A program made the position numbers and the translations under genes. DNA of 64,000 nucleotides from Myxococcota bacterium (GTDB lineage: Bacteria; Myxococcota_A; SURF-8): NCBI GenBank assembly GCA_965140415.1, contig OZ223209.1:3296001-3360000 (forward strand), given 5' to 3'. Shown here piece by piece: positions 31,388 to 50,973 of this stretch (positions are counted from its first letter, which is position 1; each line of letters begins with the position of its first letter). Under the pieces are notes generated by a model that worked only from the letters and a program-made list of their open reading frames with translations, was not told where the DNA came from and made no database searches.

Positions 31388-31393
31388 TGCATG

Positions 31394-31471
31394 ATCCTCA
31401 AACTATCTTTGAGTATTGTGCAGACTCGGCGGGGGAAAGTCAAGCATAATTCTCAAACTATCTTTGAGGAT
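31394..31471 (-). promoter_or_regulatory. abiE promoter with two 23-bp inverted-repeat operators
   Basis: atcctcaaa-ctatc-tttgagtat (31394-416) and attctcaaa-ctatc-tttgaggat (31449-471) flank TTGACT-N17-CACAAT. Confidence 0.8.
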
Positions 31472-32199
31472 TATACCCGAACAATCAACCGATCTTTGAA
31501 ATGCGGGTTCTCCTGATGGTCAGGATAGCCCAGAGGATTACAGATAATCCTCGTTTCACCATATGTGTAATCGAAGGAATCGTGGGTGTGGCCGTGAATC
31601 CAGAGTTTCGGTCTGCGCTCCTCTATCAGGTCATCCAGCGGCGCGTAGAAAAATGCGTTGGTCGGGTCGTTCTCCCACTGTTTGGATGTGCTGAGTTTGC
31701 AGGGATAATGATGCGTTACAACGATATCGCCCGGTTGCATTTCATCGGAGAAGAAGCGAGCTGTCGTCCCGTTCTCCTCATACACAGCCGGATCGAAATT
31801 CCTGATGTAGGTGAAATCGGAGAGCCGGTAGCGATGGGGATGGCTTTCGGCATTATACGGAAACCAAAGTGTCGCTCCAACGAATCGATGCCCGGCAATT
31901 TCAATCGAGTCGTTATCGAGCACATGTAGATTATCGGGTAGGGTAGAAGAAGCCAAAGGCTTATCATGAAAGTCAGCGCCGTAGAATTCGTGATTGCCAT
32001 AGCAAAAAACGATGTCGGCTTGAGTGTACCTCTTACAGAAGTGGTTTAGAACGATTGGGAGCCGGGAATGATCGGCAATATCTCCTGCAAGAACGAGTAC
32101 ATCCACCTCGCCGGGATCGAGTTGATTGATCCAGATCATCATCCGGTTTACGGTTTCCAGAAACTCGAGATGAAGGTCGGAAAGGATTTGTATTCGCAT
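31471..32199 (-). CDS. Calcineurin-like metallophosphoesterase
   Basis: SDLH, AGDI, GNHE, VTHH, HGHTH, NPLGY. Confidence 0.9.
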   Translation of the reverse strand: MRIQILSDLHLEFLETVNRMMIWINQLDPGEVDVLVLAGDIADHSRLPIVLNHFCKRYTQADIVFCYGNHEFYGADFHDKPLASSTLPDNLHVLDNDSIEIAGHRFVGATLWFPYNAESHPHRYRLSDFTYIRNFDPAVYEENGTTARFFSDEMQPGDIVVTHHYPCKLSTSKQWENDPTNAFFYAPLDDLIEERRPKLWIHGHTHDSFDYTYGETRIICNPLGYPDHQENPHFKDRLIVRV

Positions 32200-32224
32200 T
32201 AAATAGACCTGCTAAAAAGAGAAA

Positions 32225-32998
32225 TCACATCACTCCCAGCACCCAGCCTTCAATTGTTTCCGCGATACGGCGCTCATCGTCCGTCAATTGTGGATGAAAG
32301 TACGCCTCTAGGCGACCGGTACGGTCCATTTCGGATAGCCAGCGCGACACGGCATAGGCGTCGTGTTCGTGGGAATTGCGATCCTCTCGCGGATAGCGGC
32401 GGCTGAACATAGATGGATAGATTTCCGCTATGACCGATTTGTTCTCCGGCGGCGTCCAACCATCAAAGGGCCAGAAATGGACCCGGTCGCCGATTTCCTT
32501 TCGGATGTGTGCCAACCAGGGAATGCCCGCCCAACTCGATTTCCCCACCGCGCCGGGACCGTCAAAGCGGAAAACGCTCTTGGCGCTCGGTGTCCAGGTT
32601 TCCGTGATGCGCAGTTCATCTTTTATGCCGCCTGGTGGTGGAGCACCATCAATCTCCCAAAGGAAATCAACGTAGGTATTGTGATGCGTCGGCCACAGCC
32701 GCGGGAAAACATTCAGCATTTGTTTCCAGTCGCGGATGCCCTGACGCTCGTACCACGCATCTGGCAATGAGAAGCAATGGTCGATACCGACGATGATCCT
32801 CTTTGAGTACAGTTGTTCCACCAGCCATTCGGCAATGACACGACGCGACCACTTCTGGGGACCGTGCGGACGGGCGTCTGGAGTTGAGACGCGCCGGGGT
32901 TCATCGCCGTTGTTAGATTGGTAGACTGCCAGTCCTTTCAGGCGGCTTTCAGCCGTTTCTGCCCCGGAGTAGTCGATGCCGATGTATGAGTCGTACAT
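32225..32998 (-). CDS. DUF429-like predicted nuclease (RNase H-like fold)
   Basis: GIDYSGA, VGIDHCFSLP, VHFWPFDGW, AEIYP, HEHDA, EGWVLG; start set at MYDSY, 4 nt after the mcrC stop. Confidence 0.6.
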   Translation of the reverse strand: MYDSYIGIDYSGAETAESRLKGLAVYQSNNGDEPRRVSTPDARPHGPQKWSRRVIAEWLVEQLYSKRIIVGIDHCFSLPDAWYERQGIRDWKQMLNVFPRLWPTHHNTYVDFLWEIDGAPPPGGIKDELRITETWTPSAKSVFRFDGPGAVGKSSWAGIPWLAHIRKEIGDRVHFWPFDGWTPPENKSVIAEIYPSMFSRRYPREDRNSHEHDAYAVSRWLSEMDRTGRLEAYFHPQLTDDERRIAETIEGWVLGVM

Positions 32999-33002
32999 GG
33001 TG

Positions 33003-35051
33003 TCACCCAAATTCGAGGCGTCCGTTTGACCGGTTTCGAGCAAAAAGCGTCTTCGCAAATGCGGCAATCGAACCACCAGACAATGTGGTTTTATCCATCA
33101 ACTGATAGGTCGTTCCTTCCTGCAGCCAAATCATACCTGTTGCCGTCTCCAGGCACATGCTTGGCGTGCGTTCACCAGATAGAAACCAGAAGCGATAAGC
33201 CGGGATGCCGAGCAGGTCGTCTGGCAGATGATGTTCCAAGCGGCGTTCTGCGTCCGGGAAGGATTGGAAATCTCGCCGTACCCCGCAGCCCTCATCGCCG
33301 GAGCTGTCGAAATAGCCGTTGTGGCAATCAACTCGGGAGGCAGTGGTAAGCGCCTGTATGAGGTAGGCGGCAATGAATTCGTAGACGTAAACAGCCAGTG
33401 TTGGCATTGGCGTCGGTCCATCCGGCTTGTGGCCGATCCAGCGCAAACATGCCTCCGGTAGATTCTCCCTGTTTGCGACAAGCTCCATCCAGTCCCGACG
33501 TCGGTTTAGCGTCCGGTTACCGTTCAGTGCGGAAAAGACATGGAAGCCGCCCTTGAGATTGAGATCGGCAATGTGTTGGTTGTTCCGATCATGAAGGGAT
33601 AGGCAATGATACTGCCCGCCACCGGGATAGGTTTCGATCAGCTTTAGATCAGGCCGCATTCGGAGAATCACCGCCATGGCCGAAAAGGCATGGGCCATTA
33701 GAAAGGTTGGATTACTGAAGTTGCGCCGCTGTTGCTCTTGACTCATGGCCAGAAGGTTGCGCAATGACGCACGAAGCGCTTCTCGCGCTTCTATATCTCC
33801 CAGAGGATGGCTGATGTTGACTTCTCGCACCAGGATACGGCGCGCCGAATCTTCCTCTTCACGTCTCTGATGGCGGTAGGTGGTCGCATGTGTTGTGTTG
33901 TCAGACAGCTTCGGACTTAGCGGATAAAGCAGTGTGACGCGTCCGACATCGTACTCCCGTCCATAGGCGTACATCTGGTAGATGTCGCTCTGGGATACGC
34001 CCCCATGTGGCTGACTGGAATCGAGTTCCTTCCACTTCGTGTCGATCAGTTCCGAGATCGTTCTTTCGCGGAAAACACCGATGTCGGGACACAAGCGGAA
34101 TTCACCTCTGCCGTTCCGGCGAAGTAGATGCTTCGACGCCAGCTGCGGTTCGATGGTGATGTTCGGATCATCGACGGCTGCCTTCAATTCCTCGGCAATG
34201 AAGCGTTCGAAGACGACATTCATGTCGAACATAAGCGAATAGACTTCGCGCCCGCCGGTGTCCCGCTCGCCGGACGTTGCGCCGATGATCAGCGTCGCCA
34301 GATTGAGCAGCGGCTCGAAGCGCTTCAGGTTTCGGTCGAGGGGAAGATGCTCCCCGTTCATCAATTCAACAGGCTCGTCCGCCACATCGTCGAAAAGTGC
34401 GACTAATTGAGTTGCACGGCGCGAGACGTCGTTGCTGAAGACCTGCCGCTCACAGATGCGTAAGGCTGATTTAAGGCGTCGCGAGAAACGATTGTCGGAC
34501 TCAAATTCGTCTGCCGCCGTGAAGAAACGTTCCTTGTGAACCAGGTTGTGGCGGATTTGCTCCTGGAAAAGCAGCTTGCCGCGCAGGTACGGGCGATTCT
34601 CTTCCTCCCTTACATATCGTCGAATCGGTCCTCGCGTCCATTCGCGGAACAGTTCCCGCACGTAAAGATCCATGAAGGCCGCGATCAGCGGTTTGTCCGA
34701 GCGCGCCAGAGCTGCGATGTGAGCAGGATGGACCGGCACCAGCCCGGCTGTGGCGATCATGTGCAGCAGGTTTTCCATTGCACCGCAAATGCCGTCCGGA
34801 TCATTGGGCCGGTCGATTTTCGGGACCACGTCGATGCAGGTATCGCCGACGCCGAGCGAGCCGACCCATTGTGTGGCTTTGATGCTGTCCAGTCCCAGCT
34901 TGAAGTACTCGATACCGATTCGTTTCTGATAGCGATCGATGGCGTAGGCTTCTCGGCGGCTCAGTGCGCTTGCGTCCGCACGGAAGCTGTCCGAGACGTC
35001 AATCGTCTCGTGCTCGCGGATCAGGATGCGTCGGCCTCGTCCCATCGGCAT
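33003..35051 (-). CDS. mcrC: McrC-family PD-(D/E)xK nuclease with a ~240-aa C-terminal extra domain
   Basis: WVG..VVPKI, LRGKL, FDMNVVFERF, PDI..IDTKWK, SQSDIYQMYAY. Confidence 0.88.
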   Translation of the reverse strand: MPMGRGRRILIREHETIDVSDSFRADASALSRREAYAIDRYQKRIGIEYFKLGLDSIKATQWVGSLGVGDTCIDVVPKIDRPNDPDGICGAMENLLHMIATAGLVPVHPAHIAALARSDKPLIAAFMDLYVRELFREWTRGPIRRYVREEENRPYLRGKLLFQEQIRHNLVHKERFFTAADEFESDNRFSRRLKSALRICERQVFSNDVSRRATQLVALFDDVADEPVELMNGEHLPLDRNLKRFEPLLNLATLIIGATSGERDTGGREVYSLMFDMNVVFERFIAEELKAAVDDPNITIEPQLASKHLLRRNGRGEFRLCPDIGVFRERTISELIDTKWKELDSSQPHGGVSQSDIYQMYAYGREYDVGRVTLLYPLSPKLSDNTTHATTYRHQRREEEDSARRILVREVNISHPLGDIEAREALRASLRNLLAMSQEQQRRNFSNPTFLMAHAFSAMAVILRMRPDLKLIETYPGGGQYHCLSLHDRNNQHIADLNLKGGFHVFSALNGNRTLNRRRDWMELVANRENLPEACLRWIGHKPDGPTPMPTLAVYVYEFIAAYLIQALTTASRVDCHNGYFDSSGDEGCGVRRDFQSFPDAERRLEHHLPDDLLGIPAYRFWFLSGERTPSMCLETATGMIWLQEGTTYQLMDKTTLSGGSIAAFAKTLFARNRSNGRLEFG

Positions 35052-35057
35052 AACGGA

Positions 35058-37733
35058 CTACTCGTAGATCTTGCGCAGGCTCTCGGCCGTCAGGTTGGGA
35101 TTGACGGTGTAGATCCGCTTTGGAGCCACGTGGTTATTGGGGAAGCCGAGTTCATTGGAATCCGGAAGCGAATGCTGGATAATCGCGTTTTCGGGGTCGT
35201 TCAGAGCGGGGAGATGATCACGGTCTTTCCGATCGCTGAGGTCGTTGAAGACGAGCTGTAGCTTCTCCCAGTCCTCGTAGAAATACTCCTGCAAGAGCGG
35301 GATGATTTTATCCCGAAAGACCTTTTCCAGTTTCTCGAAAGTGTCGATGCCGATGAAGTAGGAATGCCCAATCTGGTGATCGCGGTCCAGAAGCACCGTG
35401 ATACGCCGGTTCATGGCATCCAGCAGCTTTTTGAGATCGATGGGATCGCCCTCATCCGGGGCTTCTAGGCTTCGTGTGCCGGGAACATCGTCATCTCCAA
35501 ACAGATCCGAATCCGGCATCAGTTCGACGAAGGTGAAGCGCCTTCTTAGTGCCGTGTCCATCAGGGCGATGGATCTGTCAGCTGTGTTCATGGTGCCGAT
35601 GACGTATAGGTTGTCGGGAACGCCGAACAGCGGCGCGCCGGGATTCTGACTGTGGGAATACGGCAGCTTCACACGCAGGCCACCGGTCCACTCGCCCTTA
35701 TCTGCATTCCAGGTCATGCGCTTGTTCGGCTCCAGAAGCGTAATCAGCTCGCCGAGCACCTTGGAGATGTTGGCGCGGTTGATCTCGTCAATAAAAAGCG
35801 CGTACTCATTTTCCGGGTCACGAATGGCGTCGTCCACGATCTGCTTGAAGATGCCGTCGGTCACGCGGTAGCCGATACCATTACCAGGTTCGTCTTCTTC
35901 ATCAACCACCGGTTTGATGCCCTCCACGAAGTCTTCGTAGCTGTAGGACTGGTGGAACGTAACAAGCTGATAGCGGTTTTCTGCTTTGGTAATGGGGGTA
36001 TAGCTGTCGATTTTGTGTTTGACGTCCAACAGATCCGGGGCGTCCTGCTCGATCTGTTTCTCCAAAACTGACCACTTGCCGTCTTCGCTTTTCGTGAATA
36101 TCTGAGGAAGGTTGCGTTTGGCGATCTTTACGTGAGGGCAATCCAGCTCCGTGTGCAGTTGAAGAAGACCGCGAATCGTGTGCTGAACGTTCTTCGGATC
36201 CGAGCGCAAGGAAAACGGCTGGTCCGTTCCGGACATGGAAGCATCGGCAATCGCTTCCTGGGCTTTGTTCCTTATGGCACGATCAGCGCGTGCTTTGACG
36301 TAAGGATGCTGATAAATCTGCTGAAGCGAACAATCCCCCATATCCATGATGGCCAAGGCAAGCACCTGCCACCAGGTAAGCTCCATCACCTGCTGCTCGA
36401 TGAACTTTTCCTTCGTGATCGTCTTCGTCGACGTGCGGAACTTCGGCATGTACACGTGCTGTAGCCGATAGGTCTTCCCGGTTCCCGGCGGTCCGTAGAG
36501 GATGAGGTTCAGGGGAAGATCCATTTTCTCTCCTTCGGTGGCATCGGTATTATTGGCCACGGAATCCTCCTTTGACTCCGGTAGTTCCTTCAGCAAGACT
36601 TTCAATTTCCGGCTGATCGGCTTGTTGCGATCCTCATGTTGGGCAAGGGCGTCTTGCAGAATCGCACGCGCCTGTTGATGAGTCAGCCGTCGGAAATTGA
36701 TGGGGGTCTTTGGCATTTTGAAGTCCACCGACGCGGACTCGTCGAACAAGATGGCATCATCGGCCTGGCAGGAAATCGGAGACAAGCGCGCGTTCTTCTC
36801 CGATTCTTCACCGTAGGGCTTTCCGATTGTGGCATGCGCATACAGGCCCACCACTTTCTGCTGCTTCGTGTGATAATCCGTCGAGACAAAGAACGCGATT
36901 CCGCGCCCGTGCTCGAAACTTCGCAGGCTTTGATTCTTGTTGTCCTCGCGCCAGAGGATGAAGATATCACCTTGGGCTTTCTCTCCCTTCGTCTGGAATA
37001 GCCCCGCTTCCGGCATTTCGTTGTCGGGACGAATCTGCTGACCCGAGATGCGTTGGATATCTTCCGGTGCCGGGTCGCCTTGCCAGTGATTCGAGTGCCA
37101 GGGAATCCAGATGGCCGCATGAGGATAAGGGCGAGCGGTGGGATGCCATTCGTCGATGTACCGATCTAGTGCCGGCGTCAACGTCTCGATGATCGCCTGA
37201 AGCTGACCGGTTACAGTATCCCCCCATGATTCCGCCTCTGCTTCTGTATTGGGGAACGGCGGTTGTTCGACGAAATACGGATTGTAGCGAAACCAGCGAT
37301 TCCATTTATCCTTGGTCGGTTTATCAAAAGCTACGCTTTCAGAAAGTGCGCCGAGTCCATCGGAGAGAAATTCATGGAGGTCATCGGCCAGCTCTTTCTG
37401 CTTCCGCTTGTCATCCGTAGCCTGGTGAGAAAAAAGGTCTTGGTTGCGGATGGATACACTGACGAGAAATGTTTTTGTCGGCGAAGGCATATCCAACTTG
37501 GCCGAGTTGACCAGGCAGAATCCGAGGAGGTGCGAATCAACCTCCCACCGATCTTCCTTGGTCACAAGAAACGATACGGGCTCGCTACTGTTTTTATAAT
37601 GGCCAAATGGCTTGATCGTCAGATCGAGCTTTTCACAAAGCGGTCGTATCGTATCTTTGATCCTCTTTATCTGCGGAATCAGCAGTGTTTCGATTTCATC
37701 TTTATGTATCGTTCTCATTCCATTCACCTTCAT
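35058..37733 (-). CDS. mcrB: McrB-family AAA+ GTPase with a long N-terminal region
   Basis: [38 protein letters not shown] signature, [21 protein letters not shown]. Confidence 0.92.
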
Positions 37734-37802
37734 CAGCGGAATTTTAACGAGGATCGTATTCCAAAGCCGCGACAGATTCCGATATTACCCGCTTTGCTAT
37801 TG

Positions 37803-40800
37803 TCAATCCCTCCTATCGGCATCCCCATCGGCGGGCGGTGTTTCCGGATGCAGGGTTCGGACCAGGCGGAAACCAACGTTGTAGTAGCGGTCGCCGGGCG
37901 AGGCGGCGTTACGGCCCGCGGACCGGCATTCCCGTGCGCCGCCGCTTAAGAAGCCGCCACGAATAACGTGGGTGGAGCCTGATGCTGGTCCCACGGGATC
38001 AGTCGCCACATCATTCTCGTAAGACTCCTGATACCAGTCCCAGGTCCATTCATGCACGTTCCCACTCATGTCGTATAAACCCCAGCGATTCGTCTCTTTC
38101 TCGCCTACTGGGTGTGCAGTTTCGTTTGAATTTCCACAATACCATCCGATCTGATCCAAATTATCGTCCAGCATGCAACCCACGTTTGTAATTGTCCCGT
38201 CGTTCCCATTACTTTGATAAATCGCCGTGTACTCACTCCCCGAACGGATTGAATACTCCCATTCCGCTTCGGTGGGCAAGCGATACCCTGCGCAGTCTTG
38301 CGGTTTGGGTACATCATTCAAAGACACCGTGCAGCTATAGGCCCCTGATAAGCACCACTCCTCCGCTCCAGAACAACCGCCACCCAATGTGCCTGAACAA
38401 TTCGTAAGTGTGAAACAGGGCGTCAAACCATTCTCCATCGATATCCAGTTCGCATAGGCCAAAGCTTCATGCCAGTTCACCCTTTCCACCGGACAGTTGT
38501 CTCCGCAATTTTCACCATCGCCATTCGGACCGAAATAGCTCGGTTTTTTCCCAAAGGCGGTGAACCACTCCCCTTGCGTCACCTCATGCGCCTGCATCTC
38601 AAAATCATAGGTCAGGGTTACTTCATGCAAGGTCTCGTCTTCGTAACGCCCCAACTCCTCCACACACGTTCCCGGATAGCCCTCCGGACAATCCACCTCA
38701 TCCGGTGAGCCCATCCAGAAGGTCCCGGCGCGGATGGAAACGAAGTCGTCGCAGGCGTCTCCGAGGCCATCGTTGTCGAAGTCTTCCTGTACCGGGTTAT
38801 AGTCGTCGGGGCAGTTATCGCAGGCCGTGCCCACACCGTCGGCATCCGGGTCGGCCTGGTCGGCGTTTTGGGTAGCCGGGCAGTTGTCGTCGCAGCTTGC
38901 CGTCTCGCCGCCGGTGCAGGGATTGTCATAGGCGGCCAGCGACCCATCCCCGTCGTCGGGGATGCCGTCGGCGTCGTAATCGAAGGGAGTCGTTCCGTCC
39001 TGGGCTGTTAAAGCGCTAAGTTCCCACGAGGCCAACGGGTAGTGTAGGAATTCATCCGGCTCTAGCGCTCGGTTCATGATGCGGACGGAGTCGATGAGGC
39101 CGTGGAACCAAGCATTCCAAATGGGACGACTTGTTCCGATGAAAATGTTGTAAGGTTCATGGCCCTCGATTGTGAAATCACAAACATTCTCTTGATCCAA
39201 GCTCTGATCGTACCAGACCGAGATGCTTCCATCGTCGTGATGCCCAACTACACTGTGCCACACTTCCGGTTCTGGGATTGATCCTATATTGTTGCCACTT
39301 GAACATCGGCCTTCATCACCCAGTGCTGTAAAAGATAAATTTCCTTCCCCACCGCCAAGATAATCAAGAAACAAATCGTAACCGAGCAGATCACGCACGC
39401 GATAATACAAAACATGCGGCTCTTCGTTCGTATTTGTGTCTGCCATTATTACAGAATCGACCGCAACCTGATTTACGGGCATCAGTGTAGAATGTTCTGG
39501 GATTTCAACATGATCGTCCACCCCATCAAATGAAAGCGCTGTTCCTTCGCGCCCGGCGACCCATTGTGGTGGTCCGTCATCGCCTAACAACGTCCCATTA
39601 TTCTTATTCGCACTTGAATCAACGGCCACCGTTCCCGCTCCCTCGTTGAAGCGCCACCAGCCCGCGTAGCCGGTGCATTCGGAAAGCAGACCGTAACAAT
39701 GCGGGTAATTACCGAGGGTGTTGTCATACAGGCCGCTCACGATGGGCAGGTGCTGGTTGGCGTCCGGGTTGGACCAGTTGAGCCAGTAGCGCATCCAGGC
39801 GAAGGGGCCGTCCGCGCCGCCGCTGACGTCTTCCGGTTCCGTATTTACCAGGAACCTCACCGTGGGCAGGCCCGGGTTGGCGCGCCGGTAGATGTATTCA
39901 GGCGACTTGGCGACGGAGTGGATGAGGACGTCGTCGATCTTGCCACTAAAACAATGACCTCCATAAGAGTTGCATCCAAACCTCAATGGAATGCCTACAG
40001 CAGAAACCTCGGTCTCATCGTTAGTAGAATTATTTGCCAGACCATCGACATATAGCTTTGCTATTGATCCATTCCACGTAACCGCAATGTGCATCCATTT
40101 TCTTAATTCAATAGACTGCTGTGATTTAAGCCTCCGTACTATTTCGGTACTCATTAACCTATGAGAAAATTCAAGTTTGCAAGAAGTATCAATTTGAATA
40201 ATAGCTCCATTGCCATAGGTGTCGTCTGGGTATGTCTTAGACATAATTCTTTGTGTTTCTGTTGTTGGACAATGTTCGGCAAACACCCAAGTCTCCCATG
40301 TTCCCTCAACAAGCAGAAAATCAGGCTCATCCGATACTTCAATATATTTGTCATCGTCTGAACGAATCGCCCCATCGTAATCTCCAAATCTTCCGATGGA
40401 CGTAATCGCACCATTGTTCGTCCCATCATGCCCGTTTCCGCTAGCATCCTCAGCATTGCCATCCAGTTTCCAATACCCCACCACGCCGCACAGATCCTCC
40501 CGGTCGGCGATGTGGGGGATGTCGGCTACGGGGGTTGCGTCGTATTCGGCCGGGCAGGGCGTGTCCGAGTGCGGGCGCGGACCGAGAATTTCGTGGGGAA
40601 TGAGGTGCTCGGTGGTCGCGCCGTCCACCTGAGCGCTGGTTTGTGTGACGCGGATGTCGTCAAAGTCGTCCTGCGCACCGGGGGTCATCTTCGTGCTGTA
40701 GGGCGCGCGGGAGTCGTAGTATGCCCTGATTTCGTCTGGGGACAGGGCACGGTTGAAGAGGAGGACTTCATCTATATGGCCGTGAAAATAAGTGGTAGCT

Positions 40801-42608
40801 TCTGGAATTGGGCCGCCATTGGGATTGCCGCCTATAAGCAATGGCATTTGATTGTAGGTAATTGTTCCCTGGCATGAAACAGAACTCCTGAGGTTACCGT
40901 TGATATAGATTTTCAGAAATGCATTATCAAAGGTTATTGATACATTGAACCATTGGTCTAAAGAAATCATTTCAGAGGAGGTGGCACCAATGTTGTTCTC
41001 GCCAATGCGAAGAATTGCCAGGAGTTTGTTTTCGGAATCAACAGACAAGCCAAAGCCGGAACCTTGTTGACAACTCAGTATCGTATCACTGTTGTTGGTT
41101 CCTGAAACCGGGTAGACCCAGACTGTTGCAGTGAACTCTTGAGGTTCCAATGCAGGATTTGTATCTATTGTAATGAATGTGCTATTCCCATCAAATTCGA
41201 TGGAACCATTTGAATCACCAAATGCCCCATCTACATTGTTTAAAGTCCCATTGCATATCCCATCATTCCCATTCCCCGAATAATCAAGCGCCTGCCCGTT
41301 GTCCAGCTTCCAGTAACCCACCACCGAATCGTCCAGTATCCCGTTGACCAGCGGAATTTCGATGGGCTCATGGGTTCGTTGCCAGGTCGACAAACCACTT
41401 GTACTTTCCGTGTCTTCAGTTCCCACATCGGCATCGCCATCGGCGGCTTGCTCATCTTCCGGCTGATAAAGGGCAATCTCCCGCTTTCCGCCATATACTG
41501 TGCTGTGGTCCGCCCAGATTTCGCAGGCACTCGGGGCGTTGTCGGGGTTCCATACCGTCGGGCAGGTGTCGTGTTCGATTAGAACGCAATCAGGCGCGAA
41601 GCAAACGCCGTCGTGGTCGTCGTCCGGCTCGATGGGCGCACACCAGAAATCCCCATGCCCGGCCTCGAACCAGCCTTCGGCGCACTGCCCGCATTGATTG
41701 CCAGCGTACCCATCGTCGCAGTCGCAGGAACCATCGGCCGGATCGCAATCGCCGTAGCCGGAGCAAATTTCAAGGGTGGTGTACAGGCATTCGCCCATCG
41801 CACAGAAATCGAGTAAGGTGCAGGCATTATCGTCTGTACAGGACTGTTCATCATCGTTCTGGTCCGTACAGACGTTTTGTTCACAAGCCAGAACGGTGCA
41901 GGGCTTGTCGTCTTCGGCATAATCGCCGCAGCCCGCCACGTCGAAGCAGTCCTGGCAAATACCGGAGGCGCACTGGTCGGCATTGTTCTCGCCGCAGACG
42001 GTTCCATTGACTACCGGATTGGAATTCGCGCACTGGCCACCATTGCATTGGCCTATAGTCAAACAGGGTTCGAGTTCGTTGCAATCCGTGCCGTTATCCA
42101 CGTTGCGCCAGGCTTCGGGCTTGTTGAGCGGATCACAGTAGTGGCAGCTATTTCCACGCTGCGTTTCGTTTTCGTCGTAGCAGACGCCGCCGATCAGGCA
42201 ATGCCAGCGGTCGCGCTCGTGCTCGCAGCGGCCCGAGCGGCAACGGTCGTCCGTACAGGAGAGTCCATCTTCTGGGCAGGCCTCGCCCTCATTGATGGGC
42301 TGGCCGTCCGGATTGCAACAAACCGACTCCGCCGGGTTGCAGAGGATGGTTTCGGAGTCGCCGTCGGTTGTGATGTCGTAGTCGGCTTCTTCGTCGCCGT
42401 CAATGGGTGTATCGCCGTCGCTTCCGTCGCCATCAGCGATGGCCTCTTCGTCTCCGTCTGGATGGGTGTCCATGTCGGCATCGCCGTCCGTGACGGGTGT
42501 GTCGCTATCGCCATCGGTTTGACCGGCAGGCTCTTCCCACTCGAACCAGTTGCAGGCGGAGAGGAAGATGGCACAGATAGAAATAATGATCGCTACTCGA
42601 ATGCTCAT
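37803..42608 (-). CDS. Giant lipoprotein: DGD linker, Cys-rich/EGF-like repeats, 3 LamG domains, TSP3-like repeats, C-terminal FGE-sulfatase (CLec-fold) domain
   Basis: Lipobox LSAC; GYWKLD/GWWRF...GxID(E/D/S)V x3; DNCP..NADQAD.DADG.G.ACDNC; RLPTEAEWEY, GLYDMSGNVHEW, GFRLV. Confidence 0.87.
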   Translation of the reverse strand: MSIRVAIIISICAIFLSACNWFEWEEPAGQTDGDSDTPVTDGDADMDTHPDGDEEAIADGDGSDGDTPIDGDEEADYDITTDGDSETILCNPAESVCCNPDGQPINEGEACPEDGLSCTDDRCRSGRCEHERDRWHCLIGGVCYDENETQRGNSCHYCDPLNKPEAWRNVDNGTDCNELEPCLTIGQCNGGQCANSNPVVNGTVCGENNADQCASGICQDCFDVAGCGDYAEDDKPCTVLACEQNVCTDQNDDEQSCTDDNACTLLDFCAMGECLYTTLEICSGYGDCDPADGSCDCDDGYAGNQCGQCAEGWFEAGHGDFWCAPIEPDDDHDGVCFAPDCVLIEHDTCPTVWNPDNAPSACEIWADHSTVYGGKREIALYQPEDEQAADGDADVGTEDTESTSGLSTWQRTHEPIEIPLVNGILDDSVVGYWKLDNGQALDYSGNGNDGICNGTLNNVDGAFGDSNGSIEFDGNSTFITIDTNPALEPQEFTATVWVYPVSGTNNSDTILSCQQGSGFGLSVDSENKLLAILRIGENNIGATSSEMISLDQWFNVSITFDNAFLKIYINGNLRSSVSCQGTITYNQMPLLIGGNPNGGPIPEATTYFHGHIDEVLLFNRALSPDEIRAYYDSRAPYSTKMTPGAQDDFDDIRVTQTSAQVDGATTEHLIPHEILGPRPHSDTPCPAEYDATPVADIPHIADREDLCGVVGYWKLDGNAEDASGNGHDGTNNGAITSIGRFGDYDGAIRSDDDKYIEVSDEPDFLLVEGTWETWVFAEHCPTTETQRIMSKTYPDDTYGNGAIIQIDTSCKLEFSHRLMSTEIVRRLKSQQSIELRKWMHIAVTWNGSIAKLYVDGLANNSTNDETEVSAVGIPLRFGCNSYGGHCFSGKIDDVLIHSVAKSPEYIYRRANPGLPTVRFLVNTEPEDVSGGADGPFAWMRYWLNWSNPDANQHLPIVSGLYDNTLGNYPHCYGLLSECTGYAGWWRFNEGAGTVAVDSSANKNNGTLLGDDGPPQWVAGREGTALSFDGVDDHVEIPEHSTLMPVNQVAVDSVIMADTNTNEEPHVLYYRVRDLLGYDLFLDYLGGGEGNLSFTALGDEGRCSSGNNIGSIPEPEVWHSVVGHHDDGSISVWYDQSLDQENVCDFTIEGHEPYNIFIGTSRPIWNAWFHGLIDSVRIMNRALEPDEFLHYPLASWELSALTAQDGTTPFDYDADGIPDDGDGSLAAYDNPCTGGETASCDDNCPATQNADQADPDADGVGTACDNCPDDYNPVQEDFDNDGLGDACDDFVSIRAGTFWMGSPDEVDCPEGYPGTCVEELGRYEDETLHEVTLTYDFEMQAHEVTQGEWFTAFGKKPSYFGPNGDGENCGDNCPVERVNWHEALAYANWISMENGLTPCFTLTNCSGTLGGGCSGAEEWCLSGAYSCTVSLNDVPKPQDCAGYRLPTEAEWEYSIRSGSEYTAIYQSNGNDGTITNVGCMLDDNLDQIGWYCGNSNETAHPVGEKETNRWGLYDMSGNVHEWTWDWYQESYENDVATDPVGPASGSTHVIRGGFLSGGARECRSAGRNAASPGDRYYNVGFRLVRTLHPETPPADGDADRRD

Positions 42609-42610
42609 CG

Positions 42611-45600
42611 TTATTTACTTTCCGGATGCAGGCTACGGACCAGGCGGAAGCCGATATTAAAATTCCTAAAGCCGGGAAGAAAACTAGCGCGGTTAGAGGA
42701 TCGGCATACTCTGGCATCGCTACGCATTGCTCCGCCACGAAGTACGCGGTACGTTGCATCACAAATTCCACCTTCTGGATCAATACCCAAGCCTGTGTTA
42801 TCGGAACAATATTTATCCCACGTCCATTCACTTACATTACCACTCATATCAAATAAACCAAGATCATTGCCTGCTTTGAGCCCTCTTGGCTGAGTCCAAG
42901 TTGAGTTTCCGCAGTACCAGGCTATCTGATTCAAATTGACATCCTGCTCACATTGAGTCATTGTCAGTGTGCCATCGTTGCCATTGCTCCTATAAAGAGC
43001 GGAATATTGGTTGCCACTTCGAATAGCATATTCCCACTCAGCGTCTGTCGGCAACCGGTAGCCTGAGCATTGTTGCGGCTTTGTTAACCCATTAATAATA
43101 CTCACGCTAGCCGACTCAATCCCACCCTGATTTTCGTTCATGCACGCCAAGAAATCAGTGTCCTGTGCAGAGCCATCCTCACATACTACATCGGAAAATT
43201 CATAGCATTGTATGAATCCGGAGAGCTCTGATCGAATATTGGCATAGGCCAGAGCGTCATACCAGGAGACCATTTCTAGCGGACAGTTAACCAATGTGCC
43301 ATTAGGGCAATTACCGGTGGTGCTCGGATTCCATGTCGTCATGGAAATCCACTCATTTTGAGACACTTCATATTTCATGATTTCGAAATCATAGGTCAAA
43401 GTCACTTCATGTAAAGTCTCGTCCCCACCCCGCCCCGGCTCATTGATGCACTCCCCCGGATATCCTTCCGGGCAATCCACACCATCCGGTGAACCCATCC
43501 AGAAGGTACCAGCCTGGATAGGGATAAAAGAGCTATGCCCGCTTGCGCACTCGGCATGATAGGCGGCAGTCTCCACGCAGGTGTCACCGGGCGGACAGTT
43601 TTCGGTGATGGACCACTCGCCCGTCTGGCCGCAGGAGAGGATCGTTCCTGCTTCTACGCCGCATTTGCTCCATCCGGTGACGCATTCGATCCAATCGCGT
43701 TCAACGCCTTCGCCGTCGCCGGTTCGGGAGGCCGTACCTTCCAGCGACCCCGGCGGCAGTTGCCCGTGCGCGGCAAATACGGCATCGTCGCGCCCCACGT
43801 CGAAATGCCACAGGCCGATGGTGTGCTCGTCCGGTTCAAAGCGGAAAGCGGGGGTGAAGTCCTCGGTGTAGCGGACGGTGTCGGAGATGCGGACTTCGTC
43901 GATGTGGCCTTTGAAATATCCTTGAGCATCGTCATTTGGATTCCAACCGAGATGCGTGATAGGCGAATTGACTGGTGTAAATGTTTCAGGAGTGAACGAA
44001 ACCTGCCCCACATTCCGACCATCTAGATATAGTGTTGCACTTCCCGTTTGTTTAACGACGGCAATGTGATGCCATCGACCAGGAACGACCGATCCGGAAG
44101 GCGAAGACACATTCCAAGATGGCCCTTGTTCTCGATAATCCAGGACTCCATTATCATAAACTTTCAAAGCAACGGTTTGCGGGTCACTTTCACCGTACAA
44201 GACTTCCCATAAATAAGCGGCCTCACTTGGCCCATCCCAACGGAACCATAACTCCAAAGTACCTATATCGTGCGGTCGAAAGAGATAATCATCAGCTAAA
44301 GTTACGTGCGAGGAGATGCCGTCGAATCCGATGGTCTTGTCTTCCATGCAGGGGTCACCTTCCCGGCAAGGGCCTAGGGCGTAGAGGTATTGATCATCTG
44401 ATCCAAAAAAGAGCGTTTCGTCTGATCCGATACTTGGCGAAGAAAGAATCATGTCGCCGGTTGTGTATTGCCAGTTCAATTGTCCATTTGAATTCAAGGC
44501 ATTCATGCGGTTGCCAGTTGATCCAATGAATATTCGTCCTGCTGAATCAATCGTGGCTGAACCGTAAATCATATTTGCTTCATTGTAGGACCAACGAACT
44601 GAACCATCAGGGTTAAGTCCATGTACAGCGCCATTGTAAGTTCCGAAATACAGACTACCGTCATTGGCAATTGCTGGTGCCGACGTAACGTTACCCCCGG
44701 CACCAAACTCCCAAAGTATTTCTGCTTCGGGATCAATGGCACGAATGTATTGATCGAAGGTTCCCGCATAGATGGTTCCGTCTCGCCCAATGGAAGGATT
44801 TGAGTAGATGTAGTTGCCGGCTTCGGAAGCCCATACTTGTTCGCCATCTGGACTAAAAGCATATATCGCATCACTGCCAACATAGATTGTCCCGTTTTCT
44901 CCTATGACTGGACTTGAGCGTGTTCCTGCATTCAAGCTTTCTGACCACAATTCTTCCCCATTTGTTCCCACAGCATAAAGCTTTTCATCACAAGCGAAGT
45001 ATAGAACATTTTGATTGCCTATTACAGGAGACGAAATGACAGCCTTTGGCGTCTCAAATGTCCATTTCGGGCTGCCATCGGGATAAAAGGCATACAGGTT
45101 TTTCTCAAATCCACCGATATAAACATGGCCTTCGTGATCAATCAAAGCGGAAGAGATATAGACTCCCTTGCTGGAAATGGGAACGCGCCAATACTCTGTT
45201 CCATCCGGATGAATGGCATAGAAATAACCAAGCTTGGGCTCAGCGTTATTTCCGCAACCTACGTAAATGGTTCCATCTGAGGAAATAACCGGTGACGACC
45301 GTACCCAGTCCTCTGTCTTGAAAGCCCACCTCAGTGTCGGTTCTTCAGGGCCGTAGTATTGACTCTTACCCTGATGGGTTGGACATCCTCCGAACATCGG
45401 CCACGGACTCCCCGCCTGTAAGCCACTCATATCCCCGCAGGAGCCGCCTTGATCCGGCGCGCAGATTTTGGTATCAATATCCTCACCCGGCCAACAGGAC
45501 TGGGTAGTCGAATCGCATTCCCAGCAGATTTGGGTGTCGGCAATGCATTCGCCGCAGCTGTAGCAGCCATTGGGACTCTGACCGCATGCAATGTACTCAG

Positions 45601-46591
45601 TGCAATCGTTTTCCACGAAAGCCGTACCCGTGCAGACGCCGCCGACGCACTCGCTGGCGGTGGAGCAGTCGTCCTCATCGTCGCAGACGAAGCCGGTGTC
45701 GGGACGGGCCGTCCAGTCAGTTTGAGAGGTATCCGGCGCACAGACTTCGCAAACGTTGGCCGGATTGGCTTCCTCGGCTTCGGGGCAGGTTTCGCCGATC
45801 AGGCAGTGGCCGGTTTGAACGGGATAGTTGCAACTTCCGTCACCCAAACACGTCGCGCCGTCGATTTGTTCGCAGAAACCTGGCGTTTCGCAAGTGTAAG
45901 CAGTGCCTTCGCAGGATTTGTCCGGTTGACATTGATCCGTGTGCGTACAGGATTCTTCATCATCGCAGACCGCGCCTTCGTCGGCCGGATAGGAGCAACC
46001 GCCCGCACCGTCACAGATTGCACCCTCTGCTGTCTCACAGAAACCTGGACTTTCACAGGCATACCCCGTCCCGGCGCATGATTTGTCCCGCTGACAGAGG
46101 TCGGTGTGGGTGCAGGATTCCTGATCGTTGCAGGTGTCACCTTCAGCCGCCGGATAGGAGCAGGAGCCGTCGCCGTTGCAGGTCGCCCCCTGGGCTGTTT
46201 CGCAGAAGCCCGGCGTATCGCAGGTGTAGGGCGTGCCAACGCATTGGTGATTTCGCTCGCACTGGTCGTTGAAGGTGCACAGGTTGTTGTCATTGCAGGG
46301 GGTGCCGTGGGTGTCCCAATGGCAGCCGTCCGAGCAGCAGCGCGTCCCGCGAGCACACTGGCAGCCTTCGGGGATGTCCGCTTCGATGTCACCGTCTACA
46401 GGTGAATCGCTATCGCCATCCGTGATGGAGTCTTCGTCGCCATCCGTGCTGCCATCGATTTCATTATCGCCGTCCGTGACCGGCGTATCGGTATCGCCGT
46501 CCATCATATCGTTCGGCTCTTCCCACTCGAACCAGTCACAGGCAGGAAGCAAGCAGACGATCAGAAGAATTGACAGAGCGCGAAGCGGCAT
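42611..46591 (-). CDS. Giant lipoprotein: DGD linker, Cys-rich repeats, PQQ-like beta-propeller, LamG, C-terminal FGE-sulfatase (CLec-fold) domain
   Basis: Lipobox LPAC; SSPxIxxDGTIYVG repeats; FKGHIDEVRIS; RLPTDAEWEY, DMSGNVSEW, GFRLV. Confidence 0.87.
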   Translation of the reverse strand: MPLRALSILLIVCLLPACDWFEWEEPNDMMDGDTDTPVTDGDNEIDGSTDGDEDSITDGDSDSPVDGDIEADIPEGCQCARGTRCCSDGCHWDTHGTPCNDNNLCTFNDQCERNHQCVGTPYTCDTPGFCETAQGATCNGDGSCSYPAAEGDTCNDQESCTHTDLCQRDKSCAGTGYACESPGFCETAEGAICDGAGGCSYPADEGAVCDDEESCTHTDQCQPDKSCEGTAYTCETPGFCEQIDGATCLGDGSCNYPVQTGHCLIGETCPEAEEANPANVCEVCAPDTSQTDWTARPDTGFVCDDEDDCSTASECVGGVCTGTAFVENDCTEYIACGQSPNGCYSCGECIADTQICWECDSTTQSCWPGEDIDTKICAPDQGGSCGDMSGLQAGSPWPMFGGCPTHQGKSQYYGPEEPTLRWAFKTEDWVRSSPVISSDGTIYVGCGNNAEPKLGYFYAIHPDGTEYWRVPISSKGVYISSALIDHEGHVYIGGFEKNLYAFYPDGSPKWTFETPKAVISSPVIGNQNVLYFACDEKLYAVGTNGEELWSESLNAGTRSSPVIGENGTIYVGSDAIYAFSPDGEQVWASEAGNYIYSNPSIGRDGTIYAGTFDQYIRAIDPEAEILWEFGAGGNVTSAPAIANDGSLYFGTYNGAVHGLNPDGSVRWSYNEANMIYGSATIDSAGRIFIGSTGNRMNALNSNGQLNWQYTTGDMILSSPSIGSDETLFFGSDDQYLYALGPCREGDPCMEDKTIGFDGISSHVTLADDYLFRPHDIGTLELWFRWDGPSEAAYLWEVLYGESDPQTVALKVYDNGVLDYREQGPSWNVSSPSGSVVPGRWHHIAVVKQTGSATLYLDGRNVGQVSFTPETFTPVNSPITHLGWNPNDDAQGYFKGHIDEVRISDTVRYTEDFTPAFRFEPDEHTIGLWHFDVGRDDAVFAAHGQLPPGSLEGTASRTGDGEGVERDWIECVTGWSKCGVEAGTILSCGQTGEWSITENCPPGDTCVETAAYHAECASGHSSFIPIQAGTFWMGSPDGVDCPEGYPGECINEPGRGGDETLHEVTLTYDFEIMKYEVSQNEWISMTTWNPSTTGNCPNGTLVNCPLEMVSWYDALAYANIRSELSGFIQCYEFSDVVCEDGSAQDTDFLACMNENQGGIESASVSIINGLTKPQQCSGYRLPTDAEWEYAIRSGNQYSALYRSNGNDGTLTMTQCEQDVNLNQIAWYCGNSTWTQPRGLKAGNDLGLFDMSGNVSEWTWDKYCSDNTGLGIDPEGGICDATYRVLRGGAMRSDARVCRSSNRASFLPGFRNFNIGFRLVRSLHPESK
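45820..46305 (-). repeat. Three tandem ~52-aa Cys-rich repeats
   Basis: C.D...CT..D.C......C.GT.Y.C..PGFCE...GA.C.G.G.C.YP x3. Confidence 0.8.
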
Positions 46592-46592
46592 C

Positions 46593-47417
46593 CTACCACC
46601 TCACCAGCAAGGAGGCAGCCACACCGTCCTTCTGGGGAGCGATGCCAAAGGAAACCGGCTCAGGTTCATTCGGCTCGCCGTTCTTCTTTTTCACGGCATC
46701 CACGATCCACAAGGCCGCACCCGTCACCATCGCCGCGCCGCCGATGGTCCAGCATGCGATTGTCGCTCCTTTCCAGCCATTAAAAGAGCTTTTGTCACCA
46801 TCGTCTTTGGCGGCTTTCATCTGGCTCATGCCGACAAAACCGATGACGGTCACCCCCAGACCCGAGAAAAAAGTTCCGTAAGCGGCTTTCTCGTAGACGC
46901 TCATCTCCCCTTGGCTGACGCCGGAATCCGTTTTATTGCCAAAGAGATCCGCCGCTGCCTGGGGCACGATTTTAACGAGATCCGTCAACGAGCCTTCCAC
47001 CTGACGACTGATACGCTTGATGACCTCCGCCGTCCGCACGTTGATGCGGCGAAGATTCAGAACGTAAATACCACCCACGCGCCCCAGGTCGCCCGCCACG
47101 ACCTCCGGAACACCTAAGGCCGCCCCGATCTCGGCGATGCAGTTGTCGCTCTCCGCGCCGCAGTTCTGCTTGGTTTCTTCGCCACGTAAAATGGTCTGGA
47201 TATCAGTTTCGCTGATCACTTTTTTACCGGACTGCTTCTCCACCTCGGCGCTGATGATGCCGGTCAGGGAATCGATGTCATTTTCGGAAACGCCGGTCTT
47301 CGCCTCCAGCCGCCAAACCACCAGACCGTCACGCTCTTCGGCGTATACCCAAGTCGACGACAGGACACAGATAACCAGCAACAATAAACCAAGAGATGTC
47401 GAAAGGTTTCGATGCAT
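46593..47417 (-). CDS. Secreted/outer-membrane protein with a TolB-N/CsgG-like domain and a hydrophobic C-terminal region
   Basis: Signal peptide; CIAEIGAALGV..VVAGDLGRVGGIYVLNL; ends ASLLVRW; first gene of a three-gene operon. Confidence 0.6.
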   Translation of the reverse strand: MHRNLSTSLGLLLLVICVLSSTWVYAEERDGLVVWRLEAKTGVSENDIDSLTGIISAEVEKQSGKKVISETDIQTILRGEETKQNCGAESDNCIAEIGAALGVPEVVAGDLGRVGGIYVLNLRRINVRTAEVIKRISRQVEGSLTDLVKIVPQAAADLFGNKTDSGVSQGEMSVYEKAAYGTFFSGLGVTVIGFVGMSQMKAAKDDGDKSSFNGWKGATIACWTIGGAAMVTGAALWIVDAVKKKNGEPNEPEPVSFGIAPQKDGVAASLLVRW

Positions 47418-50649: not shown

Positions 50650-50973
50650 GGGTTTACCTCCTTGTTTTTGGGAAAATGGGCGCACTTGCGCGGGACATCC
50701 GGGGGATGATTGGACAGGTGGCTGAAATGGTTGGGAAATTCAGGTTAGAATGGGTTGTCTGTCACTTCTCTTATGTCATTTTCCAGGTAAGATTTGCCAA
50801 ACAATCAATTTCCGATTTTCATTGTAAAGTCAGTCAGATAGAGTATGCTAAGAGTAGGATGCAATCGATAGTTTCGCTGTAGCTTGAGCTTTTGTTTACG
50901 GGTCGTAAATAATAGCAGTCGGCTACGTTGGCCAGGAGCGTTTAGCACCGCTCCGCAAAGGACAGGTGCGCAA

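Follow-up and report, generated by a model that had tools for sequence, protein, structure and literature searches.

The stretch analysed here, called the window below, comprises 64,000 nucleotides of the genome of an uncultured Myxococcota bacterium (C1:3296001-3360000 of the single-contig, 5.98-Mb genome G000, with a G+C content of 52.4%; coordinates preceded by "C1:" refer to this contig and the others to the window). It contains on the minus strand two adjacent intact open reading frames (ORFs), genes A and B (C1:3333803-3342591), which encode predicted giant lipoproteins and in which a conserved GC-rich framework carries AT-rich cores of putative binding domains. We consider it likely that these cores have been replaced singly, as cassettes, by homologous recombination in the conserved flanks. 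The evidence consists of a mosaic in third-codon-position GC content (GC3), a contrast in conservation between framework and cores, a discordance of the two at synonymous sites, the replacement of single cores in relatives and the fidelity with which cores keep their position.

Both proteins begin with signal peptides that, read directly, end in a lipobox, the L-x-x-C motif which marks bacterial lipoproteins: ...AIFLSAC (LSAC) with Cys19 in A and ...CLLPAC (LPAC) with Cys18 in B. Signal peptides and domain families together suggest that A and B are secreted, lipid-anchored surface proteins, and the domain families indicate that they are probably adhesins or receptors. In Pfam searches, gene A matched Laminin_G_3 (PF13385, LamG below) in three stretches (E 2.1e-57, 193.9 bits versus a cut-off of 27.6) and gene B in one (E 2.3e-19). 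A putative FGE-sulfatase domain (PF03781) was assigned by family match to the C-terminal part of each (aa 1286-1584 of A, E 4.1e-41; aa 1021-1319 of B, E 3.3e-38).

The three LamG domains of A belong to what we define as a tri-LamG array, S0-C1-S1-C2-S2-C3-S3, in which four matches to framework hidden Markov models (HMMs) follow one another in order and enclose three gaps of 100-260 aa, the cores C1 to C3. The models were built from 8 homologues including gene A, which scores 124, 202, 191 and 78 bits against S0, S1, S2 and S3. Each core (~165-175 aa) corresponds to almost the whole beta-sandwich of a LamG, or concanavalin-A-like, domain, and each S unit between cores consists of the last strand of one LamG, a Cys connector of ~70 aa and the first strand of the next LamG. 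In an alignment of A with 7 homologues, drawn from 4 other genomes, identity is 0.52-0.89 in framework windows (S0 0.55-0.81 in its conserved parts) and 0.09-0.29 in core windows (by segment, C1 0.15-0.29 and C2 0.09-0.42); between bacterial families, framework segments are 70-90% identical and cores ~20-25%. The framework of A is 0.78 identical to that of its nearest relative in another family, and RpoB of the same two genomes 0.75. The array occurs in many Myxococcota metagenome-assembled genomes. The framework HMMs found 19 arrays on genome contigs, of which two were duplicates of loci already in the set and were left out, so that 17 unique arrays remained; they also found 83 arrays in 69 of the 121 database proteins, 14 of these 69 having a tandem pair. 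Across 30 related genomes and a collection of 5.8 billion proteins, the closest relative of gene A is 49-54% identical overall, and the 90% cluster of gene A has one member. The best N-terminal relative (L035, also L007, of genome G003) shares 64% identity over aa 42-475 and lies on a 2623-nt contig that ends a few codons past GYWKLD, at the start of core 1; strain heterogeneity at this point could be the cause, but this is a single anecdote. In L023, L027 and L036, three arrays of relatives (genomes G006 and G009), the framework segments do not share one reading frame. The frame shifts at some point within or close to a core, which may be due to misassembly of AT-rich sequence, to decay into pseudogenes or to past exchange.

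An AlphaFold2 model of the array, calculated from a shallow alignment of 8 sequences, had a mean pLDDT of 57; the three LamG sandwiches reached ~70-88, and the connectors (aa 638-705 and 912-980, at ~40494-40697 and ~39669-39875), which carry invariant Cys pairs, remained below 50. The low values may come from the shallow alignment or reflect a need for a partner or for disulfides. No Pfam model covers the connectors in our Pfam scan.

The earlier note on this DNA had described sharp and repeated switches of base composition inside intact ORFs near conserved domain-edge motifs, and its four counts of G+C in 60-nt windows (17, 43, 23 and 38 of 60) are exact; windows with at most 17 make up 0.34% of those in the genome and windows with at least 43 make up 0.40%. 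For genome statistics we used our own simple ORF set (3704 ORFs, each at least 150 aa long and none overlapping another), which covers 87.5% of the genome; gene GC3 in it is 0.60 +/- 0.078, and the 1st and 99th percentiles are 0.38 and 0.76. In windows of 40 codons, GC3 spans 0.28-0.90 in A and 0.25-0.85 in B, and the standard deviation of GC3 within the gene ranks 6th (A, 0.162) and 11th (B, 0.151) among the 1749 ORFs of at least 400 aa; the median within-gene value, 0.077, equals the binomial expectation. A two-state HMM that sees GC3 alone recovers the described boundaries almost to the codon. In A, it delimits LOW segments at aa 441-614 (0.39), 712-888 (0.34) and 996-1166 (0.41) and HIGH segments at aa 615-711 (0.82), 889-995 (0.85) and 1167-1601 (0.65); in B, the LOW segments are the propeller (aa 401-734, 0.40), the LamG core (aa 763-894, 0.36) and the FGE-sulfatase domain (aa 1059-1326, 0.45). 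LOW segments open directly after GYWKLD or GWWRF and close directly before GxID(E/D/S)V, and the switches are abrupt at codon resolution, as at aa 889, where S2 starts. A LOW and a HIGH segment occur together in 45 of the 3704 ORFs, gene A having the most direct switches, five. Of the modules described as AT-rich, the LamG cores, the propeller and the FGE domain of B are so; the FGE domain of A is not, its windows lying at 0.47-0.75 within a segment called HIGH at 0.65, and of the two FGE domains only that of B is AT-rich. The segments and domains are collected in Table 1.

Table 1. Genes A and B and their modules, in window coordinates (residue numbers refer to the respective protein).
Feature	Position	Strand	Residues	GC3	Description
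Gene A	37803..42608	-	1601 aa		lipoprotein signal, acidic DGD-rich spacer, Cys-rich region, tri-LamG array, thrombospondin-type-3-like acidic repeats (assigned by eye), C-terminal FGE-sulfatase
A S0, framework before core 1	41301..41573	-	aa 346-436	0.65	ends ...NGILDDSVVGYWKLD
A C1, variable LamG core 1	40785..41300	-	aa 437-608	0.41	
A S1, framework	40461..40784	-	aa 609-716	0.78	last LamG strand (HIDEVLLFNRALSPDEIRAYY), ~70-aa conserved connector with two invariant Cys, first strand of next LamG (GVVGYWKLD)
A C2, variable LamG core 2	39945..40460	-	aa 717-888	0.34	most AT-rich segment
A S2, framework	39609..39944	-	aa 889-1000	0.82	KIDDVLIHSVAKSPEYIYRRA ... CYGLLSECTGYAGWWRFNEG
A C3, variable LamG core 3	39114..39608	-	aa 1001-1165	0.42	
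A S3, framework	39009..39113	-	aa 1166-1200	0.71	GLIDSVRIMNRALEPDEFLHYPLAS
A FGE-sulfatase domain (by family match)	37857..38753	-	aa 1286-1584	0.47-0.75	intermediate GC3; 55-68% identity to domains of relatives
Gene B	42611..46591	-	1326 aa		lipoprotein signal, DGD spacer, Cys-rich repeats, PQQ-like beta-propeller, one LamG, FGE-sulfatase
B beta-propeller core	44390..45391	-	aa 401-734	0.40	
B LamG core	43910..44305	-	aa 763-894	0.36	
B framework after LamG	43418..43909	-	aa 895-1058	0.72	starts GHIDEVRISDTVRYTEDF
B FGE-sulfatase (by family match)	42614..43417	-	aa 1059-1326	0.45	from TLHEVTLTYDFE onwards

The mosaic might have no special history and be a by-product of amino-acid composition, of codon optimisation or of selection on translation speed tied to particular folds. 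The framework does have many D, P, G, A and C residues, the cores have a high beta content, and the excess of GC3 in HIGH over LOW segments, found for every amino acid, is small for E and K. We corrected for amino-acid content, using genome codon usage for the expectation and segments set by the protein-conservation HMMs, which are independent of GC3. The expected GC3 is flat, 0.59-0.64 in every segment of A, whereas the cores are observed at 0.41, 0.34 and 0.42 (z -4.7 to -7.1) and S1 and S2 at 0.78 (z +4.1) and 0.82 (z +4.7). The contrast thus persists across amino acids, with a Mantel-Haenszel z of 10.2; a z of 16.4, obtained when the segments are defined by GC3, is circular and the former value is used instead. 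The cores and the S1/S2 framework of gene A are outliers relative to the genome in opposite directions, and the intergenic G+C of G000, 0.45, places the cores at or below the unconstrained composition. We rejected optimal-codon use as the source of the framework values of 0.82-0.85, since the genes for EF-Tu, RNA polymerase and ribosomal proteins and the other ORFs of that region reach just 0.48-0.71. AT-rich codons dictated by the fold were rejected as well: the other LamG and FGE domains of the genome are not systematically AT-rich (seven other LamG_3 domains at 0.42-0.72; 25 full-length FGE domains at 0.33-0.78, mean 0.60). Conservation and GC3 are correlated along gene A (rho +0.56, 48 windows, p 3e-5) and not along rpoB (rho -0.10, 68 windows). 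In relatives, cores range from 0.30 to 0.69 within the same architecture, and the three cores of one protein, L028, have GC3 values of 0.66, 0.35 and 0.69. The composition control, the EF-Tu region, the other LamG and FGE domains and rpoB together show that amino-acid content, codon optimisation and fold-specific codon usage fail to explain the mosaic, and we regard an account without special history as very unlikely. In the 17 genome-contig arrays, 43 of the 51 cores have a lower GC3 than the framework they sit in, and the same is true of 16 of the 17 arrays (the arrays are related and not phylogenetically independent); the contrast is strongest in genomes of 52-57% G+C and weak or absent in some of high G+C.

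That framework and cores have had different histories is clearest in two paralogues of genome G009, L006 and L018. Their framework has a dN of 0.062 and a dS of 0.34 over 321 codons, whereas their cores have a dN of 0.91 and a dS of 1.88 over 470 codons, so that core dN is 2.7 times framework dS; the core alignments, at ~23% identity, are unreliable and the core dS is to be read as saturated or unalignable, a point that counts against our interpretation. Nucleotide identity falls from 0.93 to 0.36 within a single step of 15 codons past GYWK[FL]D and is back at 0.93 when LFNRALSPDEI is reached, and all three cores contain indels. At 4-fold sites, the two frameworks are 0.76 identical, compared with 0.54 for rpoB between G009 and its congener G006, whose RpoB proteins are 97% identical. 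The earlier expectation of a constant/variable design, with scaffold and cores diverging unequally among paralogues, is therefore borne out, the framework being far more conserved than the cores at synonymous sites too. Neither of the outcomes that the earlier note had named as refuting its proposal, a GC3 contrast that vanishes on correction for amino-acid composition or equal divergence of scaffold and cores, was observed. Given cores at ~23% identity with indels in the short interval separating the frameworks, point substitution cannot yield such a change of whole beta-sandwiches. More generally, identity stays at or below 39% in all 1275 core pairs among the 17 arrays, including cores from arrays whose frameworks are 82-89% identical, such as the within-genome pairs L024/L026 (framework 0.89, cores 0.23-0.32), L041/L034 (framework 0.83) and the two arrays of L030 (0.82).

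These observations bear on the possibility that the cores diverged in place, from the same ancestral domains, under strong diversifying selection or relaxed constraint with AT-biased mutation and with no recombination. Core GC3 near or below the intergenic G+C would fit it, as would the 16 of 237 comparisons in which core identity is intermediate (0.4-0.6) and the fact that weak best matches are usually found at the same position (mean identity 0.251 at the same and 0.219 at a different position). It is hard to reconcile with the pair just described, in which whole 170-aa beta-sandwiches differ, with indels, at a dN well above framework dS, and with the unequal GC3 of cores inside one protein. 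The distribution of core identities is moreover bimodal: in the 237 comparisons with a framework identity of at least 0.70, 153 core identities are below 0.3, 7 lie at 0.4-0.5 and 32 are at least 0.6. Core and framework relationships also conflict, as the database arrays show, and we judge divergence in place to be distinctly improbable.

In the set of 83 arrays, 17 of 440 pairs with a framework BLAST identity of at least 0.60 are mosaic, combining a core identity of at least 0.65 with another of at most 0.35; in one such pair, C1 and C2 are 0.26 and 0.27 identical and C3 is 0.94. The orthologues P0011 and P0014 have frameworks of 0.81-0.91, C1 of 0.89 and C3 of 0.90, but a C2 of 0.38, and the collapse of identity begins after ...YWPLD and ends at LD[ED]V[IL]LH, that is, at the anchor motifs. 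The C2 of the second array of P0011 is 0.72 identical to that of P0013, with a framework of 0.73-0.79, versus 0.53 to that of P0014, with a framework of 0.90-0.96. Such single-core differences between close orthologues and the conflicting histories of core and framework agree, for the relatives, with the module swapping at conserved anchors that had been proposed from the letters of this locus. Position is kept in all 46 core pairs of at least 60% identity, which fits homologous recombination in position-specific flanks.

Part of this pattern could arise by concerted evolution alone, in which the cores would be ancient and static and the framework, homogenised by gene conversion among arrays of the same genome, would look young and become GC-rich through GC-biased repair. 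Pairs within a genome do have the most similar frameworks with unrelated cores (L024/L026, L041/L034, L030), in 8 proteins with tandem arrays the frameworks are 0.50-0.91 identical while 23 of 24 cores are at or below 0.45, and the process would account for a framework GC3 above both the genome mean and the EF-Tu/ribosomal-protein region. It cannot, however, explain orthologues ~85-90% identical whose C1 and C3 agree at ~0.9 and whose C2 is 0.38 identical, nor cores that are more alike than their frameworks (C3 0.94 versus 0.70-0.87; C3 0.83 versus 0.61-0.78), and gene A, the single tri-LamG array of G000, has no conversion partner. As the sole explanation we find concerted evolution unlikely; it probably operates beside core replacement, not in its place.

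Gene B repeats the conserved-flank/variable-core pattern of the array when its sequence is aligned with an in-genome paralogue at C1:5365923-5368544. The propeller is mostly 20-47% identical per block of 20 residues (three blocks reach 0.61-0.63) and the LamG core 17-47%; the flanks have 70-90% amino-acid and 72-82% nucleotide identity, and aa 891-950 are 75-90% identical. The DNA blocks said to be highly similar between A and B are present but modest, with 171 nt at 73%, 141 nt at 72%, 50 nt at 80% and, at the 3' end, 34 nt at 91%, the three mismatches of the last being of mixed type. No DNA repeats link the three anchors within gene A.

The earlier note had also entertained local hypermutation and an antibody-like diversification of the cores. 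An enzyme could in principle drive targeted hypermutation: a deaminase, or a diversity-generating retroelement (DGR) whose target would be the FGE/C-type-lectin-fold domain or the LamG cores. Variable regions of DGRs are ~100 nt long and length-preserving, whereas the variable tracts here are ~500 nt long and contain indels, with cores as unlike one another as unrelated members of the same fold. According to passages of PMC5006420 and PMC6328139, FGE-sulfatase domains have the C-type-lectin fold used by DGR variable proteins, and by Pfam match the FGE-sulfatase domains of A and B belong to that fold family. The genome holds 37 FGE-sulfatase matches and two matches to reverse transcriptases (RTs), at C1:3799712 and C1:4305603; the latter are ~463 kb and ~969 kb away, one being group-II-intron-like (284 bits versus a cut-off of 300) and the other unclassified, above the cut-off of no NCBIfam model. 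To our knowledge PADLOC has no DGR model, so the DGR class of these RTs had no positive test; with both matches distant, no DGR-type RT was found near genes A and B. Searching the genome by blastn with both genes, we found no near-identical, template-like repeat, the best matches elsewhere being FGE paralogues of ~70% and short blocks, and no silent cassette, i.e., no DNA match to the LamG or propeller cores outside the genes themselves; the seven other LamG_3 domains sit in long open frames of 236-874 aa.

Population data came from the assembled contigs of two runs of one study, in which rare variants are lost and which say nothing firm about hypervariation. One contig of sample X1 spans 37000-46878 with 0 differences to the window, cores included, and among the pieces listed for X2 (136 further pieces exist) there are likewise 0 differences; the run differences listed inside A and B come from contigs less than 90% alike, from paralogues or other organisms. 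Neither the genome nor these contigs gave any indication that a DGR, hypermutation of the deaminase type or programmed switching within a clone is at work. Since the variable tracts carry indels, the RTs are distant, template and silent copies were not found in the genome and the listed contig stretches of both samples match the window, nothing points to a hypermutation enzyme; we consider targeted hypermutation extremely improbable, and a somatic, antibody-like system has found no support here. The exchange appears to be a process of evolutionary scale that proceeds by ordinary recombination.

Under the reading that we prefer, replacement of single cores by homologous recombination, individual cores would be exchanged as whole cassettes over evolutionary time, the crossovers falling in the position-specific conserved S segments. 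Exchange would take place between strains, between species and possibly between paralogues, with a contribution from homogenisation of the scaffold by gene conversion, and its outcome would be a large set of core combinations on one framework, for which a dedicated enzyme would not be needed. The mosaic would then be the footprint of separate histories, the cores being long-diverged allele classes that circulate horizontally, and the framework owing its high GC3 either to GC-biased repair of heteroduplexes formed only there or to descent from mostly high-GC family members. Two non-exclusive causes of the AT-richness of the cores may be proposed: the cassettes would circulate horizontally and be AT-richer than their hosts, like the tips of Rhs proteins, or heteroduplex formation with GC-biased repair would be confined to the anchors while cassettes unable to pair drift under AT-biased mutation. 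GC-biased gene conversion in bacteria is treated in parts of PMC4450053.

Several points weigh against this reading. Exchange was seen between species and paralogues of relatives, and the closest relative of A is just 49-54% identical; for the lineage of gene A itself, we infer recombination as the mechanism. No donor for the three cores of A was found among the cores of the 83 arrays, the best full-length matches being 34-38% (34% for C1, 38% for C3). The GC3 deficit of cores, present in 43 of 51 cases, is too systematic for random foreign donors, so that a directional process is also needed, and in the high-GC relatives L037 and both arrays of L038 the contrast is at most 0.03. Between A and L016, framework identity at 4-fold sites is 0.59 versus an rpoB baseline of 0.43, and similarity of frameworks between families could stem partly from stronger codon bias and not from recent exchange. 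Finally, the mosaic protein pairs come from metagenome assemblies, where the joining of paralogous arrays at stretches of conserved framework could make false mosaics; the evidence from paralogues, the 17 genome-derived arrays, tandem arrays, the single-contig genome and gene B does not rest on these pairs.

A bolder suggestion, which we offer tentatively and would not expect to hold in full, is that the tri-LamG array is a natural modular display platform with three independently exchangeable lectin-like cassettes. Its position-specific connectors, which match or surpass RpoB in conservation and yet are predicted to be non-globular, would hold the cassettes and serve both as spacers in the protein and as recombination anchors in the DNA, and the two-sided GC3 mosaic would be the footprint of GC-biased conversion at the anchors and of AT-biased decay in cassettes that do not pair. 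If this were true, the arrays would let Myxococcota populations combine specificities for prey, kin or substrate into a repertoire on the cell surface, and GC3 segmentation would be a general detector of cassette-exchange genes in bacteria.

The same signature occurs elsewhere in G000, in other giant proteins bearing FGE, Lcl_C and propeller domains and in three type IIG/IIL restriction-modification (R-M) enzymes. The latter (at C1:1990484-1994113, C1:4098829-4102239 and C1:5331579-5334896), one of them MmeI-like and two with an Eco57I methylase and TaqI_C, are among the other strongest GC3 mosaics of the genome and have a HIGH-LOW-HIGH profile in which the LOW segment (0.39-0.41) spans the target-recognition domain (MmeI_TRD or TaqI_C) and the flanks reach 0.78-0.85. 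Target-recognition domains of R-M enzymes have been reported, in sections of PMC3077401, PMC3575425 and PMC3983042, to be mobile between genes. That recognition domains share the signature argues that in this genome it marks specificity cassettes set in conserved frameworks.

Genes A and B share logic with Rhs proteins, with domain exchange in R-M enzymes and with TraA, yet fail defining features of each. Passages of PMC7259588 describe a GC-rich core and an AT-rich core-extension in Rhs. As in A and B, Rhs and other polymorphic toxins join a conserved GC-rich part, at a conserved motif and within one ORF, to a variable AT-rich part; in Rhs too, the variable part is replaced by recombination and composition departs from the host genome in both directions. 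Unlike the C-terminal toxins of Rhs, however, the variable parts of A are internal, three per array and cores of lectin-like beta-sandwiches, and we found no YD/RHS repeats in A or B with Pfam and no immunity gene or orphan cassettes downstream, the neighbours there being McrB- and McrC-like. In R-M enzymes (type I S subunits and type IIG/MmeI), specificity domains are exchanged between conserved framework regions, as in A, but these are DNA-binding domains of cytoplasmic enzymes, and their "domain movement" can change position, whereas all 46 shared cores of the arrays keep theirs.

TraA-type receptors have a PA14-like variable domain and a MYXO-CTERM sorting tag, and the conserved body of TraA includes Cys-rich repeats. 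Parts of PMC3820747 and PMC6372800 present TraA of Myxococcus as a surface receptor for kin recognition with a variable recognition domain on a conserved body. A and B resemble it as predicted surface proteins of the same phylum with variable domains on a conserved body; they differ from TraA in their lipoprotein signal, their three variable modules and the additional FGE domain. No PA14-type domain was found by Pfam in A or B at E <=0.01, and the C-termini, ...HPETPPADGDADRRD and ...LVRSLHPESK, do not look like a MYXO-CTERM tag when judged by eye. The variable proteins of DGRs share with A and B, according to the sources above, a C-terminal FGE-sulfatase domain ending in GFRLVR, ligand binding and the constant/variable logic; unlike them, A and B have no DGR-type RT nearby and, by blastn, no template repeat in the genome, and their variable tracts are whole LamG cores with indels. 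Antigenic variation by silent cassettes is known from pilE/pilS, vlsE and tprK. There, as is proposed for A and B, segments between conserved anchors are altered by recombination, but G000 has no silent donors detectable at the DNA level and the contigs of the two samples give no sign of variation; the timescale appears evolutionary in A and B and within-clone in the silent-cassette systems.

Judged from the sequences, what seems new is the presence in each array of three internal, position-faithful cassettes that each comprise a whole core, together with connectors that are at least as conserved as RpoB, yet are not confidently folded in the model. The two-sided GC3 footprint is new as well. 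A full-text literature search, supplements left out, found no paper on the tri-LamG architecture, which would make it a previously undescribed protein architecture in uncultured Myxococcota. The proteins built on it are candidates for a family of polymorphic surface receptors, in a phylum noted for recognising prey and kin. The layout of framework and cassettes reverses the usual rule of conserved domain cores and variable linkers, and the architecture offers a natural example of beta-sandwich cores that may be swapped on a fixed scaffold. Intragenic GC3 segmentation is a simple signature, whose hits in G000 included the specificity domains of restriction enzymes as well. If it reflects GC-biased gene conversion at anchors, this debated bacterial process would become testable at sub-genic resolution.

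Directly downstream of gene A lies a defence island (29910-37733, minus strand) with an McrB-like AAA_5 protein (35058-37733), an McrC fused to a TY-Chap2 domain (33003-35051), a metallophosphoesterase and an AbiEii/AbiEi toxin-antitoxin pair (29910-31387). Upstream, an ORF of 274 aa resembling a membrane protein (46593-47417, minus strand) ends two bases before the start of gene B; it has a signal peptide and two C-terminal hydrophobic stretches, belongs to no Pfam family, and a diverged copy of its 3' part is present on a contig from the same samples, with 50 differences over 46553-46878. The FGE-sulfatase family, considered as a binding domain, is strongly expanded in G000, many of its 37 model matches lying in giant secreted proteins that are rich in Cys and also contain Lcl_C, RCC1 or propeller domains. 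The two EF-Tu genes of the genome (C1:5481685-5482872 and C1:5498661-5499848) have identical model scores (754 bits) and flank the rpoBC and rplKAJL genes at a distance of ~17 kb from each other. Further along the window, a CheB-CheR-PAS fusion of 954 aa (50884-53748, plus strand) has a paralogue of the same length and with near-identical Pfam coordinates at C1:4108841-4111705, which is among the ORFs that carry both a LOW and a HIGH GC3 segment.

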